64,000 bases of DNA, taken from assembly GCA_963744905.1 (NCBI GenBank), contig CAVUUV010000004.1, positions 102,360 through 166,359 of the forward strand, in the 5' to 3' direction. The translations under genes were made by a program, and so were the position numbers. The notes under the pieces were generated by a model. It had not been told where the DNA came from and ran no database searches. It saw only the letters and a program-made list of their open reading frames with translations. The DNA is from an uncultured Acidimicrobiia bacterium (GTDB lineage: Bacteria; Actinomycetota; Acidimicrobiia; Spongiisociales; ZC4RG35). Of this stretch, positions 6,578-28,456 are shown in pieces. Each line of letters opens with the position of its first letter. The stretch's first letter is position 1.

Positions 6578-7062
6578 TCAAGGATCATCCCGCTTCGGCG
6601 CGGAGCCGTCCATGGGGAACACCCCCTATAGATGTGTACAACCAGGGGCGGCCTCTCAGGAACCCGACTTCGGCATCGGGGCCATCCCGCCTGTCCGTTC
6701 TAGTAGGACGGCCGCAGTTTGATGGGCTTCTTCGGACTGCCCGACCAACATGATCAGGCCGCTATCGCATCAGGTCGTCCCCCAACACCACCCGCTCATC
6801 GTCGGCCGAGGGCAATGGGTGGCGATGAAGGGTGAAGGAGATACCCTGTTCAGGCTACCGGCCCCGCCCGCCACAGAGCCGGATGATCCTCCAGGGGTTG
6901 CCGTTCGACAGACGCCATCGCCGCGACGAGGACCGGGACTCCTGTGCCGCTTTGCCCCTTCCCTGGCCCGCCCGGCGCCTAGAGCGGCCCGGAGAAATAT
7001 CGGGCGGGCGCGAAAGGAGTCCTCTCCTCTCGGACACTCAGCACCCGAAAGGAGACACACAC

Positions 7063-7659
7063 ATGACCGACACCACCGTCCATCCTCAGCCGACCCGCAC
7101 CGGGCCCAGAGGAACCCGCATCGCCGTGATCGCCGTGATCGCCGTCTTGGCCCTCGGCACCGGTATGGCGACGCTGATCGGATTCGGCGTCCTCACCCTG
7201 GTTCCGGTAGCGACCGTCGAGCAACCCGACCACAGCCCAGCCCCCATCCCGATGCCGGCCCTGCCCGACGGGGAGATGTTCGCCTGGATCACCGGCGTCG
7301 GCGACCTCATGGTCACGGTTGATCCGGCCCAGATGCTGAGCGGAGAGCCGGCTCACGACGCCGCCGTGGAAGACGGGATCATCGCCCCGGGCGAGGATCT
7401 GCCCAACGACTACTACATCGTCAACCCCTCCAGGCAAGCCATGGACGTAGCCGTGGCAGCCAACGCCGCAGTCACGGTCTACGCCCTGGACTCCCGGGGG
7501 GCCATCGCCGAGGCGAGGATCTCCCTCCTCGATCTGGCCGCCGCCTTCGCCGGCGATCAGAGGATTCCCGTCTACGGGCTCGACCCGAGTGCCTTCCCCG
7601 TCACTTTGACCGTCGAGGGCGGGGCAGTGACTGCCATATCACAGGTGTACCTGCCCTGA
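7063..7659 (+). CDS. Hypothetical secreted/membrane-anchored protein
   Basis: An ATG at 7063 follows an AAAGGAGA RBS. An N-terminal TM/signal-anchor segment (IAVIAVIAVLALGTGMATLIGFGVL) is present. I see no recognisable domain. Confidence 0.5.
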   Translation: MTDTTVHPQPTRTGPRGTRIAVIAVIAVLALGTGMATLIGFGVLTLVPVATVEQPDHSPAPIPMPALPDGEMFAWITGVGDLMVTVDPAQMLSGEPAHDAAVEDGIIAPGEDLPNDYYIVNPSRQAMDVAVAANAAVTVYALDSRGAIAEARISLLDLAAAFAGDQRIPVYGLDPSAFPVTLTVEGGAVTAISQVYLP

Positions 7660-7664
7660 TCTCG

Positions 7665-7692
7665 GAGGGCCCGCGACCTTTCGCGGGCCCTC
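7665..7692 (+). terminator. Perfect 12-bp stem / 4-nt loop hairpin downstream of the 7063–7659 gene
   Basis: GAGGGCCCGCGA-cctt-TCGCGGGCCCTC lies 6 nt after the stop codon. It is GC-rich and has no U-tract, which is common in high-GC genomes. Confidence 0.5.
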
Positions 7693-7693
7693 A

Positions 7694-7750
7694 ATACTCC
7701 GCGTCGTAATTACGGAGCGGGGTACTTAGTACTCCGCGTCGCAATTACGG
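7694..7750. repeat. Repeat family B, copy 1 (CGTAATTACGGAGCGGGGTACTTAG core plus a partial tandem duplicate)
   Basis: The sequence contains the 10-bp palindrome CGTAATTACG. It matches the copies at 7858–7894 and 27820–27854 on the reverse strand. Confidence 0.55.
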
Positions 7751-7856
7751 TCGCATGTTTCGGCCAGTCGGCGGCGTCGATGGCAAGGACGCAGTCCGCA
7801 GGCGCACCCGCAGCGGTGCGTCAAGGACGAGGACACAGCAAGCGGCGTAGCCGGCC

Positions 7857-7895
7857 GCTGAAACGTCAGCGTAATTACGGGGCGGGGTACTTAGG
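7857..7895. repeat. Repeat family B, copy 2 (GAAACGTCAGCGTAATTACGGGGCGGGGTACTTAG)
   Basis: It matches 32 of 35 positions of the reverse complement of 27820–27854. Confidence 0.55.
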
Positions 7896-8075
7896 AGCGC
7901 CCGTCGCCACTGAAGCCGAAGTCTCTCGCAGGGTCCTGCCTGCCCTTTCCTCGGTATCATCTTCTTCAGGTCGCAACCTGACGTCCAGGGGTCGATCGCC
8001 GCAGAAGCGGGCGCTGCTTCATAGCAATTCGACCGCCAGAGTCGAGGCGCCCATCTATCGAGATCGGAGGTTCTG

Positions 8076-8954
8076 GTGAGGTGGAGCAGACGCCCCCGAA
8101 GCGACGACCTGATCGACCGGCGGGGGTCATCCCAAGTACCGGGCCGAACGGGAGGCATCCCGATTCCGCTGGGGATGTTGGGCAAGATGGGCGTGCCGGG
8201 CTTGCTGATCCTGGTGGTGATCTTGGCTTTCGCCTACTGCGGCGGGACCGGCATCGACCCTGGCGTTGGCTCCCTGGAGCGTCCGACCGACCAGGCGGCA
8301 GCCGACCCCCTGGATCCGAGCCTGGATCCTGATGCCGACCTGGTCGATTTCATGTCCTTCGTTCTCGACGATGTTCAGAACGAGTGGGCCGACCTGTTTC
8401 GAATCTCGGGGCTCACCTACGAACGGGCCAAACTCGTCGTGTTCGACGGATTCACGCAATCTGCGTGCGGAGGAGCCAACGACGTAATCGGACCTCACTA
8501 CTGCCCTGTCGATCAGCGTGTCTATCTGGATCTGACGTTCTTCCGGGACCTCTCGGATAGGTTCGGAGCCAAGGGCGACTACGCCCAGGCCTATGTCCTG
8601 GCCCACGAGATCGGCCACCACGTGCAGAACCTGCTGGGAACCATGGATCGGGTCCAGAACTCCTCGGGAGACCCCAACGACCTCTCTGTCCGGCTCGAGC
8701 TTCAGGCTGATTGTTTCGCGGGAGTGTGGGGCTACTCGACATTCCAGCGTGACCTGCTGGAGTCGGGTGACCTGCAGGAGGCACTCACCGCCGCAGCCGC
8801 CGTAGGCGACGACCAGATCCAGAGGGAGACCACGGGCCGCGTGAACCCCGAGACGTGGACCCATGGCTCGTCGGCCCAGAGGATGAAGTGGTTCGAACGC
8901 GGCTTCGAGGATGGAGACCCTTCCGCCTGCGACACCTTCTCGGGTGGAATCTGA
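8076..8954 (+). CDS. ypfJ: YpfJ-family putative neutral zinc metallopeptidase
   Basis: An N-terminal TM helix and an HEIGHH zinc-binding motif are present, and the overall match to the KPN_02809/YpfJ family (Zn_peptidase_2) is good. Confidence 0.8.
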   Translation: MRWSRRPRSDDLIDRRGSSQVPGRTGGIPIPLGMLGKMGVPGLLILVVILAFAYCGGTGIDPGVGSLERPTDQAAADPLDPSLDPDADLVDFMSFVLDDVQNEWADLFRISGLTYERAKLVVFDGFTQSACGGANDVIGPHYCPVDQRVYLDLTFFRDLSDRFGAKGDYAQAYVLAHEIGHHVQNLLGTMDRVQNSSGDPNDLSVRLELQADCFAGVWGYSTFQRDLLESGDLQEALTAAAAVGDDQIQRETTGRVNPETWTHGSSAQRMKWFERGFEDGDPSACDTFSGGI

Positions 8955-9043
8955 CCTCACGGTTCTCCTCCCGGGCTCGGGAGTCGGTTCTTGCCCGGAC
9001 CCGCCCCGAAGCTGGGGAGCCGAGGGCTGTGGTAGCGGGTCTT

Positions 9044-10264
9044 TCAGGCCACCCGCCACACCCGCCACAGAGCGGAGGGGTCCTGAAGGGGATTGCCGTG
9101 GACCAGGAAGAAGTCCGCCGGGCCTCCGACGGTGATCCGCCCTGCCGTCTCCTCGCCCAACAGCTCGCCCCCTATCCAGGTGGCGGCGGCCAGGGCCCGC
9201 CACGGCTCCAGCCCCGCTTCGACCAGACACTCCACCTCCCAGGCCATGTGGTTGGCCCGCAATGAGCCGCCACCGAAATCGGTGCCCGCCGCCATCTTCA
9301 CCCCTGCCTGCGACGCCAGGGCGACACTGTGGAAGGCCCGCTCCTTGCGCTCGGCCAGAGCCGCCCGCCCCTCCGGCGAGGCGAAGCGGTCGATGTTGGT
9401 AGTGGAGGAGAACGTCTCCCACGATGCCATCACCCCCAGGGTGGGGACCAGGTAGGTGCCACGGCGAGCCATGTCGTGGGCCAGGTCGGCGTCGAGGGTG
9501 GTGCCGTGCTCGATGCAGTGCACCCCGCCTTCCACGGCTGCCCGGGCCCCCGGCAACACGGTGGCGTGAGCGGTCACCACCAGCCCGTACTTTGACGCGG
9601 CTGCAACCGCCTGGGCCACCTCTGCCGACGTCCACGGTGAGGTATCCCGATCCGGACCGTCGAGGTACAGCTTGATCAGGTCGGCGCCATCGGCGGCCTG
9701 TTTCTGCACCGCCGCCACCAGCTCGTCTGCGTCTGACGCCTCGACGCTTAGGTCGGCCGGCAAGGTCTCGGCCTTGGATATCCAGGTCCCCGCCGCCCGA
9801 ATGTAGGGGCGGTCGGCCCGGCCCACCCACGAATCCCTCACCTGCAGAGCGAGGGCCCTTCCATCCCGCTGCGGCGATCCTACGTCACGGAACCAGCGAG
9901 TTCCGGCCCGACGGGCGATTTCGCCGTTGTGCTCGGCTACCGCCAACAGCTCCTCGCCCGGGTCTGCGCCCCGAGCGATCCAGTGCGACCCACCGGGGAG
10001 AACGGTGTGGCTGTGGGCGTCGACCATCCCCGGTACCGCCGTCGCCCCCCCGGCGTCGATGATCCGGGTGGCTTCGCCCGGGTCCTCAGCCTCGGGGTCG
10101 GGTCCGACCCACCCGACGTGATCGTCTCTAACCAGGATCGACTGGTCCAGGATCAAGGCCGGACCGGTTCCGTCGGCTATGGCGGCATTGCGGTAGAGGG
10201 TGTCCATCTCGGCGAGTGTAAGGGTTGAGCCCCTGACCAGTCCTCGGGCCTCCACCTGCCGCAA
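9044..10264 (-). CDS. Amidohydrolase-family metal-dependent hydrolase
   Basis: The N-terminal metal-binding motif …DAHSHT… (the HxH of the amidohydrolase superfamily) is present, and the length is about 400 aa. An internal start at the Met 19 residues in is possible. Confidence 0.75.
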   Translation of the reverse strand: MRQVEARGLVRGSTLTLAEMDTLYRNAAIADGTGPALILDQSILVRDDHVGWVGPDPEAEDPGEATRIIDAGGATAVPGMVDAHSHTVLPGGSHWIARGADPGEELLAVAEHNGEIARRAGTRWFRDVGSPQRDGRALALQVRDSWVGRADRPYIRAAGTWISKAETLPADLSVEASDADELVAAVQKQAADGADLIKLYLDGPDRDTSPWTSAEVAQAVAAASKYGLVVTAHATVLPGARAAVEGGVHCIEHGTTLDADLAHDMARRGTYLVPTLGVMASWETFSSTTNIDRFASPEGRAALAERKERAFHSVALASQAGVKMAAGTDFGGGSLRANHMAWEVECLVEAGLEPWRALAAATWIGGELLGEETAGRITVGGPADFFLVHGNPLQDPSALWRVWRVA

Positions 10265-13621: not shown

Positions 13622-13743
13622 CTCTGTGAACCCTTTCTTGGCAACGGGCGGAGATTCGGTTCACAATGAGAGCCGTCCCAGCGCAAACCGTTCTCTCTGT
13701 GAACCCTTTCTCGGCCACCGGCGGAGATTCCGTTCACAGAGAG
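13622..13743. repeat. Repeat family A, tandem copies 1 and 2 (CTGTGAACC-N26-GGTTCACAG hairpin elements)
   Basis: Two roughly 46 bp units (13622–13667 and 13693–13743) are present. Both the stem sequences (9–10 bp) and the loop sequence (CTTTCTYGGC…GGAGATTC) are conserved. Confidence 0.6.
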
Positions 13744-13745
13744 TG

Positions 13746-14192
13746 CTACTCCGACCGAGACGCGTACCTGAAGGTCGTGAAGGGCCATTGCCGCTGGAGC
13801 CATTCGGTCACGGCTCTCCAGACAACGACGTCCAACTCGGCGCGGCTCTTGGTGACCCATGAGCTGACATAGGCCTCGGTGTCGCCGTTTCGATCGGGAT
13901 AGATGTACAGGCACCCGATCACCTCGTCGCCATCCAGGATCGAGTACGTGAAACCCCGGCCCTCCTCGAAATCCCGGGCATGCCCGTCCAGGTCTTCCAG
14001 GTTTTCCTCCAGCGTCATCGGGTGAGGCCAATTGCCCCATTCGCCCGGGGTCGAATGGATGTGATCCATGCTCGAGGTCCAGGCGGCATAGTCCCGCTCG
14101 TTGTGGACCGATCCGAGCGGCTCCAGGCGAAAGCCGGGCCCGTCGAAGCTCGTGGGCGGGTCGAAGTCGTCAGGAACCAAGCTCGAGGGCAT
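13746..14192 (-). CDS. GNAT-family N-acetyltransferase
   Basis: 148 aa. A …FTYSILDGDEVIGCLYIYP… acetyl-CoA-binding core is present. The gene is flanked by family A repeats. Confidence 0.7.
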   Translation of the reverse strand: MPSSLVPDDFDPPTSFDGPGFRLEPLGSVHNERDYAAWTSSMDHIHSTPGEWGNWPHPMTLEENLEDLDGHARDFEEGRGFTYSILDGDEVIGCLYIYPDRNGDTEAYVSSWVTKSRAELDVVVWRAVTEWLQRQWPFTTFRYASRSE

Positions 14193-14244: not shown

Positions 14245-14291
14245 GACTGTGAACCATTTCTGGGCGTAGGCCCCAGATTCCGTTCACAGAC
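14245..14291. repeat. Repeat family A, copy 3
   Basis: CTGTGAACCATTTCTGGGCGTAGGCCCCAGATTCCGTTCACAG has the same stem and loop signature as the copies at 13622–13743. Confidence 0.6.
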
Positions 14292-14350
14292 CTGGCTCCT
14301 TCCCACCACCCCCTCCGGCTAAATGCCGTGGCCAGCAGCTGGAGGGCAAG

Positions 14351-27372: not shown

Positions 27373-27810
27373 ATGCCATCAACCGACTATGTCGCCGAAG
27401 CCACCATCGAAATACGGTCGACGCCCGAAGACGTGTGGGATGCGCTGACCGAGCCCGAACGGATCCAGAAGTACATGTTCGGCACCCGGGTGGAAACGGA
27501 CTGGAATGTCGGCAGCCCAATCGCCTGGAAGGGCGAATGGCAGGGAAAGCAGTACGAGGACAAGGGCAAAATCCTCGTCTTCGACCCGGAACGAGAGCTC
27601 AGCTACAGCCACTACAGCCCTCTGACCGGCGCCCCTGACGTTCCAGAGAACTACCACACCGTCACCATCAAGCTCACCTCTGACGATGGTGTAACGAATG
27701 TCACACTCACTCAGGACAACAACGACACCGAAGAAGCCAGAGACCACTCCCAACGGAACTGGTCAACCATGCTGCAGGCGCTGAAGGAACATGTAGAAGC
27801 CGGCTACTGA
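27373..27810 (+). CDS. SRPBCC-family protein (AHSA1/Aha1-like)
   Basis: 145 aa. The …PEDVWDALTEPERIQKYMFG… pattern matches the family. Confidence 0.75.
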   Translation: MPSTDYVAEATIEIRSTPEDVWDALTEPERIQKYMFGTRVETDWNVGSPIAWKGEWQGKQYEDKGKILVFDPERELSYSHYSPLTGAPDVPENYHTVTIKLTSDDGVTNVTLTQDNNDTEEARDHSQRNWSTMLQALKEHVEAGY

Positions 27811-27819
27811 CACCGGGCA

Positions 27820-27854
27820 CTGAGTACCCCGCCCCGCAATCACGCTGACGTTTC
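27820..27854. repeat. Repeat family B, copy 3 (reverse orientation)
   Basis: Its reverse complement is GAAACGTCAGCGTGATTGCGGGGCGGGGTACTCAG. It sits in a convergent intergenic region. Confidence 0.55.
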
Positions 27855-28009
27855 GATGGTCGGCGAACGCCGTTTGCCACGTCCTTGTCCCCGACGGACC
27901 GCCCCGGCGACGCAGGCGACCACGACCTCCCGTGCGGGTCGAGCCATGCGCCGCGTTGTAGAACTCGAAGTCCGTGAGTTGCCCGCTCGCCCTCGTGGGT
28001 GCCGAACGC

Positions 28010-28456
28010 CTACGACACGGCGGCCTTCACCATGGCGGAAACCCTCTTCTCGACCGTCGGGGTCCATTCGGTGAGGGCGTACGATGTTGGCCACATCGGA
28101 CCGTCGTCGAGGTTGGCGGCCTCCTCGAACCCGAGCGTCGCGTAGCGAGACTTGAACTTGCCGGCGTCCTTGAAGAAGACGACAACCTTGCCGTCCTCGT
28201 TGGCGTAGGCCGGCATGCCGTACCAGGTCTTGGGCGACAACTCGGGAGCGGTGGAGGTCACGGTGGCATGCACGCGCTCGGCGAGGATGCGGTCCTCGGG
28301 GGCCATCGCGGCGATACTGTCGAGCGCCGCCTGGAGGGCATCGGCCATTTTGGCGCCCTTCTTCCCCTCGGCGCGCAGCTCGGCGGCCCGCTGCTTCATG
28401 GCGGCACGCTCTTCGGCGCTGAACCCACCCGATTCGTTCTCTGTCGACATGGCCAC
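28010..28456 (-). CDS. DUF1801 (YdhG-like) domain protein
   Basis: …WYGMPAYANEDGKVVVFFK… matches the DUF1801 core. Confidence 0.7.
   Translation of the reverse strand: MAMSTENESGGFSAEERAAMKQRAAELRAEGKKGAKMADALQAALDSIAAMAPEDRILAERVHATVTSTAPELSPKTWYGMPAYANEDGKVVVFFKDAGKFKSRYATLGFEEAANLDDGPMWPTSYALTEWTPTVEKRVSAMVKAAVS

Follow-up and report, generated by a model that had tools for sequence, protein, structure and literature searches.

Results and Discussion

The stretch examined here (64,000 nt of contig CAVUUV010000004.1 from an uncultured Acidimicrobiia bacterium, hereafter the window, to which all coordinates refer) carries a 35-nt sequence in two closely similar copies about 20 kb apart, one between gene 7063–7659 and ypfJ and the other between the genes for an SRPBCC and a DUF1801 protein, which raises the question of whether a binding site, a functional RNA or a mobile repeat is involved. 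The 35-mer forms the outermost portion of the right arm in a non-coding palindromic repeat of about 160–170 nt. The family to which this repeat belongs is probably a non-autonomous palindromic mobile element of the class of the miniature transposable elements with inverted repeats (MITEs) and of the REP doublets known as REPINs, present in Acidimicrobiia and mobile now or until recently.

Two loci of a dispersed repeat

A degenerate form of the 35-mer matched the window exactly twice, at 7860–7894 (+) and 27820–27854 (−), with an expectation of 0 from 100 dinucleotide-preserving shuffles of the window. The two copies were identical at 32 of 35 positions. When up to three mismatches were allowed, the 21-nt core CGYRATYRCGGRGCGGGGTAC was found at four sites, 7705 (+), 7729 (−), 7870 (+) and 27824 (−), against 0.09 expected. 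The dispersed repeat is real and not due to chance, and to this extent the sequence-only reading from which the study started was right, but the match begins at 7860 instead of 7858 and the unit is not one of about 35 nt. Strict local alignment gave a homology of 83 nt between the loci (7813–7894 versus the reverse complement of 27820–27903), and sensitive blastn extended it to about 110 nt at 74.5% identity. The perfect 10-bp palindrome ascribed to the core, CGTAATTACG, was present at 7705 and 7870 only, its counterparts at 7740 (CGCAATTACG) and 27835 (CGCAATCACG) being imperfect; the pattern CGYAATTRCG occurred in the 64 kb at 7705, 7740 and 7870 only.

All copies are intergenic, as had been noted before, and no open reading frame (ORF) in the 400-bp gap 7660–8075 had family support. 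Altogether the window holds two loci with four to five tips, the one downstream of gene 7063–7659 being called locus 1 and the one next to the DUF1801 gene locus 2. Their features are as follows.

7665–7692, + strand: GC-rich hairpin with a 12-bp stem GAGGGCCCGCGA/TCGCGGGCCCTC and the loop CCTT, 5 nt past the stop of gene 7063–7659; context, not a member of the family
7695–7724, + strand: mini-palindrome TACTCCGCGTCGTAATTACGGAGCGGGGTA, 30 nt, near-perfect
7725–7729, + strand: CTTAG junction, right flank of the mini-palindrome and left flank of the long element
7730–7889, + strand: full-length element, an imperfect palindrome of about 160 nt forming one long hairpin on the + strand
7860–7894, + strand: the 35-mer, i.e., the right tip (basal hairpin stem) plus the CTTAG flank at 7890–7894
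27820–27928, − strand: solo right-type arm, a half element without its partner, with the tip and a CTGAG flank at 27820–27854

Anatomy of the element

At locus 1 the stop codon of gene 7063–7659 (7657–7659) is followed, in this order, by the GC-rich hairpin, the mini-palindrome, CTTAG, the palindrome of about 160 nt and a second CTTAG; what had been described as a partly duplicated copy at 7694–7750 is actually the 30-nt palindrome 7695–7724 plus the left tip of the long inverted repeat. The left arm of the full-length element spans approximately 7730–7807, the apical hairpin GGCGCACC-CGCAGC-GGTGCGTC lies at about 7793–7814, and the right arm extends to 7889. Segment 7725–7894 resembled its own reverse complement over 175 nt (blastn, E 1.3e-8), and the inverted-repeat score of the element was 43 as compared with 14.8 ± 3.5 for the shuffles. 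Of 20 positions, 15 agreed between TACTCCGCGTCGCAATTACG, the left tip, and TACCCCGCCCCGTAATTACG, which is the right tip in reverse complement, and the inverted similarity continued along the arms. The element thus possesses a terminal inverted repeat (TIR) of the length looked for in MITEs (at least 10–15 bp, PMC11602168), and a copy from another lineage, described below, has a matching tip pair of its own.

Folding of 7660–7900 as RNA gave three successive hairpins (z = −8.86), and a covariance model scored 7730–7889 at 198 bits on the + strand and 56 on the − strand. The isolated tips 7725–7764 and 27820–27859 gave z values of about +1, and 7855–7894 formed only a non-conserved 6-bp hairpin. 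The mini-palindrome folded alone as single-stranded DNA (ssDNA; z −3.5), its two wobble pairs both being G·T on the + strand. Its left half matched the left tip 7730–7750 at 20 of 21 positions and its right half the right tip 7875–7894 at 19 of 20, and it would represent an internally deleted copy that stands in tandem with the full copy and was recombined through the common CGTAATTACG core.

The hairpin 7665–7692, which had been taken for a terminator, is real, with its 12-bp stem, but it has no U-tract, no terminator was found in a scan of 7500–8200, and no T-run follows 7692, 7724 or 7894. This hairpin, the mini-palindrome and the adjoining CTTA (about 70 nt together) are absent from L012, the closest relative at locus 1 (YpfJ-like protein 96% identical), in which the left arm follows the stop codon directly; the difference may be an insertion here or a deletion in L012.

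The solo arm of locus 2 is situated about 80 nt downstream of the co-oriented DUF1801 gene (28010–28456, −) and 10 nt beyond the SRPBCC stop, and showed no unusual fold (z = +1.03). It is 77% identical to the right arm of locus 1, which itself is only 63% identical to its own left arm (over about 87 nt). Since the right arm of locus 1 is closer to the arm at locus 2 than to its own partner, the left and right ends are features of the family and did not arise by local inverted duplication.

Copies outside the window

Further copies were sought by comparing concatenated six-frame translations of the element with a protein collection, the search being aimed at spurious ORF calls that cross copies. 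Two database proteins, P0241 and P0243 (HZD24345.1), were found to be in part translations of the repeat. The former has 260 amino acid residues and is encoded on an NCBI/ENA contig of 1,094,784 bp; its last 50 residues correspond to the minus-frame translation of 7748–7897, with which they are identical at 49 of 50 positions (one change after the first residue), and its first 209 residues match nothing in the window. The homology begins at L-S-T-P-P, which corresponds to CTNAG followed directly by TACCCC, and the ORF ends at the TAA of the left core. P0241, as a protein translation, may be taken to mark a third locus with a near-identical full-length copy in a different flank, which probably belongs to the same genome as the window, since it carries the same source labels as the window proteins.

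P0243 was retrieved by an exhaustive phmmer search with the 50-residue translation and belongs to the Acidimicrobiia metagenome-assembled genome (MAG) GCA_035643195.1, whose contig L022, extended by L023, contains a full-length copy at 420–593 (−) with 78.7% identity to the window copy over 155 nt (blastn, E 4e-34). The G+C content of this genome is 60% versus 65% for the window. It had been proposed that a lack of further copies together with absence from relatives would indicate chance; the opposite was observed, with a third locus and a second lineage.

As to their surroundings, these copies lie in degraded DNA of a mobile or toxin-antitoxin-like kind: 1–345 of L022 (379–900 of L023) hold an interior portion of an IS30-type (rve) transposase that has GHWEGDL and TWDQGKE as motifs, and the N-terminus of P0241 is weakly PemK/MazF-like (E 0.008). 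The idea that the flank of P0241 is a disrupted PIN/VapC gene was unsupported in Pfam and PDB sequence searches. An IS30-type parent of the element, considered on account of the rve fragment, was rejected, the fragment lying outside the element and being met tip-first.

Conserved hairpin and strand asymmetry

The window copy and the copy of L022 were 85% identical in the interior, and their 25-nt tips were 64% and 52% identical. All 55 consensus pairs were kept between these two sequences, seven of them with changes on both sides and four with one-sided G·U changes, and none was broken. In controls with the partners slid by 1–3 columns only 25–49% of cells paired.

One strand folds markedly better than the other. 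For the window copy −91.2 kcal/mol was calculated for the + strand versus −69.5 for the − strand, and for L022 −91.4 kcal/mol for the equivalent strand versus −61.3 for the other, so that the better-folding strand is 22–30 kcal/mol ahead of its complement. This strand contains eight and seven G·U pairs in the two copies, respectively, with one A·C mismatch in each; the ratio of distinct G·U to A·C was 11:2 (binomial p 0.011), or 13:2 when the mini-palindrome was included. Judged from the sequences, the asymmetry points to selection on the single-stranded form of one strand, either RNA or ssDNA.

CTNAG flanks and position relative to genes

The element is bordered by the pentanucleotide CTNAG or a variant of it: CTTAG/CTTAG at the full copy of the window, CTGAG/CT-AG in L022, CTCAA/CTTAG at the mini-palindrome and CTGAG at the solo arm. 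The motif may be a target that is preferred and duplicated over 3 or 5 bp, or else a site of cleavage at the left flank and the right end. Sharp unit ends at CTNAG in unrelated loci are what transposition would be expected to produce.

The gene immediately upstream has its coding sequence on the well-folding strand at all three assessable loci (locus 1, locus 2 and L022), and the element starts 0–80 nt past the stop codon of that gene. In both L022 and L012 the TGA stop lies within the CTGAG flank that abuts the left tip. The copy at locus 2 is placed between convergent gene ends.

Relatives at the orthologous sites

Two relatives were compared at locus 2, L017 (a 99% strain) and L018 (an 88% relative with about 10% nucleotide divergence in the flanking genes), and both have the tip at the orthologous site, the arm of L018 carrying a 46-nt internal deletion. 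The tip of the window was identical to that of L018 at 28 of 33 positions, and the third-codon identity of the flanking genes was 0.78–0.84; these values being about equal, there is no sign of extra constraint on the tip at locus 2. The 10-bp dyad of the core was lost at locus 2, in L018 (CGAAATTGCG) and in the MAG of L022 (CGTACTTGCG / AAAGTACG). A stretch of about 50 nt between the solo arm and the DUF1801 gene, 27905–27955, was nearly invariant between the window and L018 and exceeded the adjacent coding DNA in conservation (third-codon identity 0.78–0.84). This stretch may derive from the left half that the element has lost, or else be an independent functional RNA or a segment of a 3′-untranslated region (3′-UTR).

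At locus 1, L012 retains a 31-nt patch of the left arm (27 of 31 positions) plus traces of the interior, and has lost both tips, the mini-palindrome and the GC-rich hairpin; L013 lacks gene 7063 altogether. The comparison of relatives proposed in the sequence-only reading thus gave the element at both loci, but in eroded form, with the tips gone, in L012. In a 76% relative at locus 2 the gene pair is kept and the spacer is unalignable. No outgroup or empty site was found, the 76% relatives at either locus having unalignable intergenic DNA or different neighbours. The occupancy of both loci in relatives that are about 10% diverged shows that the insertions are old and predate these splits, and in some lineages the element simply erodes.

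In a 99.3%-identical strain, contig JBAUNC010000456.1 of GCA_049579045.1 (L010) corresponds to window positions 7768–9343 and starts inside the long palindrome. The repeat or its hairpin may have broken the assembly at this point.

Searches for genes, RNA families and a transposase

About 58 ORFs of the window were compared with Pfam, and the orphans among them with NCBIfam too. No reverse transcriptase was found among them, and the ORFs overlapping the element had no family support, the element being read through by spurious ORF calls only. Rfam 15 gave no match at gathering score in the window and none at E ≤ 1 in 7600–8100 or 27780–28030. Simple scans around locus 1 detected no sigma-70-like promoter and no U-tract terminator; there was no tRNA in the window and no tandem array in 7500–8200. 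Searches of the window and of all the relatives' loci examined with nhmmer and the covariance model gave no further copies.

Three further candidates were rejected. A conserved small ORF (35 residues, minus strand of locus 2, ending in the TGA of the core) is contradicted at locus 1 by a TAG that stands in frame eight codons upstream and by an indel of 1 nt, and in L018 by the 46-nt deletion. In a template/variable repeat pair of a diversity-generating retroelement the differences would be adenine-specific, which they are not, and the window has no reverse transcriptase. A Tn3-type 38-bp end would read outward from GGGG, but the homology between the copies runs inward.

Nature of the element

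At least three unrelated loci, from two lineages, carry a unit of about 160 nt with the same interior, and the miniature form is therefore what is copied. The full element consists of inverted left and right tips joined by the conserved interior, and one of its strands would fold as a single hairpin of about 55–70 bp. We infer that it is copied in trans by a transposase encoded elsewhere in the genome, and that it would land at CTNAG, a sequence which often holds a stop codon (C-TGA-G, C-TAA-G, CT-TAG). At a stop-containing target the element would come to lie directly behind a gene, and its well-folding strand would be the one transcribed. Copies that lose an arm (27820–27928), the interior (7695–7724) or the tips (L012) would then decay neutrally.

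Several observations weigh against a mobile element. Among the relatives examined there is no clean pair of filled and empty sites, the element being present, intact or eroded, at both orthologous sites. The flanking repeats differ between the copies, with equal central bases only in the full copy of the window, and CTNAG itself pairs as stem and so may belong to the element. No transposase, integrase or Y1/HUH enzyme was found among the approximately 58 ORFs of the 64 kb, and in plasmids and phages no insertion sequence (IS) was detected whose ends match, a blastn search with the element giving nothing below E 0.2. Exact tip patterns yielded chance matches only, devoid of flank similarity, in genome, metagenome and viral collections. 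The covariation is that of two sequences, the window copy and that of L022. The third locus is known from a protein sequence only and is placed in the same genome by inference. The count of copies, finally, is limited to three loci in (probably) one genome and one locus in another lineage.

Some of these negatives have a narrow reach. The chance matches to tip patterns were nine in the genome collection with CGYRATYRCGGRGCGGGGTAC, one in the metagenome collection with GAAAN{6,8}CGTRATTRCGRNGCGGRGTA, and 0, 1 and 0 in the viral collection, and such patterns find very close relatives only, because the tips diverge fastest. The failure to find a parent autonomous IS with these TIRs in the window, plasmids and phages likewise concerns a small search space and is a weak negative.

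As to the route by which such a mobile repeat would move, a single-strand-hairpin mechanism of the HUH/Y1 type, as in REPINs and IS200/IS605, is put forward tentatively, because the G·T/G·U pairs are strand-specific, the whole stem is compensated, and CTNAG is found at the left flank and right end without consistent duplication. Classical cut-and-paste by a DDE transposase, i.e., a MITE with TNA or CTNAG target duplication, in combination with RNA-level selection on a 3′-UTR hairpin, appears doubtful. It is unlikely that the repeat is more than selfish DNA, namely a mobile RNA module in which a hairpin of about 165 nt is delivered to the 3′ ends of genes at stop-containing CTNAG sites and acts there, on the transcribed strand, as a terminator, processing site or protein-binding 3′-UTR element. 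The conserved apical core of such a module would comprise the paired AAGGAC internal loops and the GGCGCACC/GGTGCGTC apical stem, and the module would be a way of distributing a post-transcriptional signal in Acidimicrobiia.

The alternative that survives best, though quite improbable, is a host-functional RNA (a 3′-UTR terminator, a processing site, an mRNA stabiliser or a small non-coding RNA gene) duplicated a few times by ordinary recombination and not by transposition, the functional core of which would be the apical part with AAGGAC internal loops on both sides, and the 35-mer only its closing stem. Such an RNA would account for the better conservation of the interior (85% versus 52–64% for the tips), the seven compensatory changes with no broken pair, the 11:2 asymmetry in favour of one strand, and the co-oriented position immediately downstream of a gene at three of three assessable loci. 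However, neither an Rfam match even at E ≤ 1 nor a U-tract or promoter-like site was detected, free decay is seen in L012 and a deletion of 46 nt is tolerated in L018, and the tip's rate of evolution at the orthologous site is close to the synonymous one. A near-identical copy stands in an unrelated context, read through by the junk ORF of P0241, the copy of L022 adjoins a fragment of an IS30-type transposase, and the boundaries at CTNAG are sharp at unrelated loci, as transposition gives.

The tips could also be the solo ends (TIRs) of a larger autonomous IS or transposon that has been lost, with the structure of about 160 nt as a one-off deletion remnant, which is in line with the TIR-like ends and CTTAG direct repeat of the full copy, the solo arm at locus 2 and the rve fragment beside the copy of L022. 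This is very unlikely, since the same unit of about 160 nt with the same interior recurs at no fewer than three unrelated loci in two lineages, the transposase fragment of L022 lies outside the element and is met tip-first, so that the element is not the end of that IS, and no transposase was found in the window.

A dimeric transcription factor whose operator would consist of CGTAATTACG and the G-rich box (three sites upstream of ypfJ and one elsewhere) had been suggested alongside a REP-like element and is most improbable: although there are two perfect copies of the 10-bp palindrome and one near-copy in the 185 nt upstream of ypfJ, and no part is better conserved than the tip when the two loci of the window are compared (32/35), the homology of 83–110 nt goes beyond any plausible site, the palindromy is not kept in paralogues or orthologues (27835, L018, L022), one copy is placed between convergent 3′ ends, L012 has lost the sites in spite of a YpfJ protein with 96% identity, the orthologous site evolves at a neutral rate, and CGYAATTRCG is found nowhere else in the 64 kb. 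The suggestion of a REP-like element was close to the mark.

Comparison with known palindromic repeats

A MITE is recognised by TIRs, small size (50–800 bp), the lack of an ORF and a very stable hairpin (PMC11602168, PMC3184786), and the element of about 160–170 nt without an ORF falls within this range. A target site duplication of 2–10 bp at each copy and several dispersed copies per genome are looked for as well; the two flanks agree in the full copy of the window (CTTAG) but not in L022 or at the mini-palindrome, and the 64 kb hold two loci, with a third probable in the same genome. REPINs are REP doublets mobilised by RAYT tyrosine/HUH transposases, as described for Pseudomonas fluorescens SBW25 (PMC3116915, PMC3337134), and are marked by an inverted doublet with a spacer that forms a hairpin, compensatory changes, decaying singlets and tandem clusters (PMC3116915). 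The doublet hairpin is found in the element, with seven double compensatory changes and 0 of 55 pairs broken in the two sequences compared. Further likenesses to REPINs are the two inverted conserved ends with a spacer that give one long hairpin in ssDNA or mRNA, single ends as decaying remnants, tandem units with common flanks, and an extragenic location near gene ends.

On the other hand, each REP unit is a stem-loop of its own, but here only the mini-palindrome folds alone; the tips are not palindromes except for the 10-bp core, and three of four do not fold in isolation. The interior of the element is better conserved than the tips between lineages, the opposite of REPINs. It is also longer (about 160 nt), its copy number is seemingly low, the host belongs to an actinobacterial class and is not a proteobacterium, and no RAYT, the gene of which the repeats typically flank, was present among the ORFs of the 64 kb searched. 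The tips not being palindromes alone, and neither a RAYT nor a parent IS having been seen, the element is not assigned to either of the named families.

The ERIC/IRU (about 127 bp) and Correia/CREE (about 104–157 bp) repeats of Proteobacteria, which are co-transcribed with genes (PMC3184786), resemble the element in size (100–170 bp), in being imperfect palindromes over their whole length, in their intergenic position at gene 3′ ends, in a very stable predicted RNA hairpin and in TIR-like ends with a short conserved flank motif. They differ from it in having no sequence similarity to it and in their flank, which is TA instead of CTNAG, and neither an IHF site nor a promoter was identified in the element.

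Non-autonomous derivatives of the IS200/IS605 family, which transposes as a single strand by means of an HUH Y1 transposase (see also PMC6006769), share with the element a strand-specific secondary structure. Their conserved pentanucleotide, which is found at the left flank and the right end and is no true target duplication, has a likeness in the CTNAG on both sides of the element, the central base of which differs between the two flanks in two of the three comparable pairs. These derivatives, however, have two small separate subterminal hairpins, whereas the element forms a single full-length one; no Y1 transposase or TnpB was present in the window, and no Rfam family derived from such elements matched.

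Small palindromic mobile repeats such as REP/REPIN, ERIC and Correia are well studied in Proteobacteria, and the literature searched contained no description of one from Acidimicrobiia, a class of actinobacteria that is abundant and for the most part uncultured. The novelty lies in the combination of TIR-like ends, a strand-specific compensated hairpin, a better-conserved interior and stop-like CTNAG insertion past gene ends. If numerous genome-wide, the element could serve as a marker for strain typing and would account for part of the assembly breaks and of the spurious ORF calls in these MAGs. It would be a test case for movement by single-strand hairpin intermediates outside Proteobacteria. 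As far as sequence comparison goes, the motif does not appear to be a regulon motif; its use would lie in annotation and its biological interest would be modest.

Neighbouring sequences

Gene 7063–7659, upstream of locus 1, had no match in Pfam or NCBIfam. It is fast-evolving, the substitutions by codon position versus L012 being 17/11/26; the gene caller of that relative's contig chose the opposite strand, and the gene is absent from L013 and from the 76% relatives. A 49-nt direct repeat, 6849–6897 and 9043–9091 (78% identical), brackets this gene, the repeat elements and the ypfJ-like gene, its second copy being the 3′ end of an amidohydrolase gene at 9044–10264 (−). Synteny with L012 and L013 breaks at about 6843, where these relatives have a histidine kinase and a GerE-type response regulator upstream and the window has an alpha/beta hydrolase. 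This suggests an old rearrangement or insertion of the bracketed segment of about 2.2 kb.

A different repeat family of 52 nt is present at 13622–13673, 13695–13746 and 14245–14296, the copies being 67–87% identical and having the arms TGTGAAC...GTTCACA. It flanks an orphan ORF at 13746–14192 (−) and looks like operator or inverted-repeat sites.

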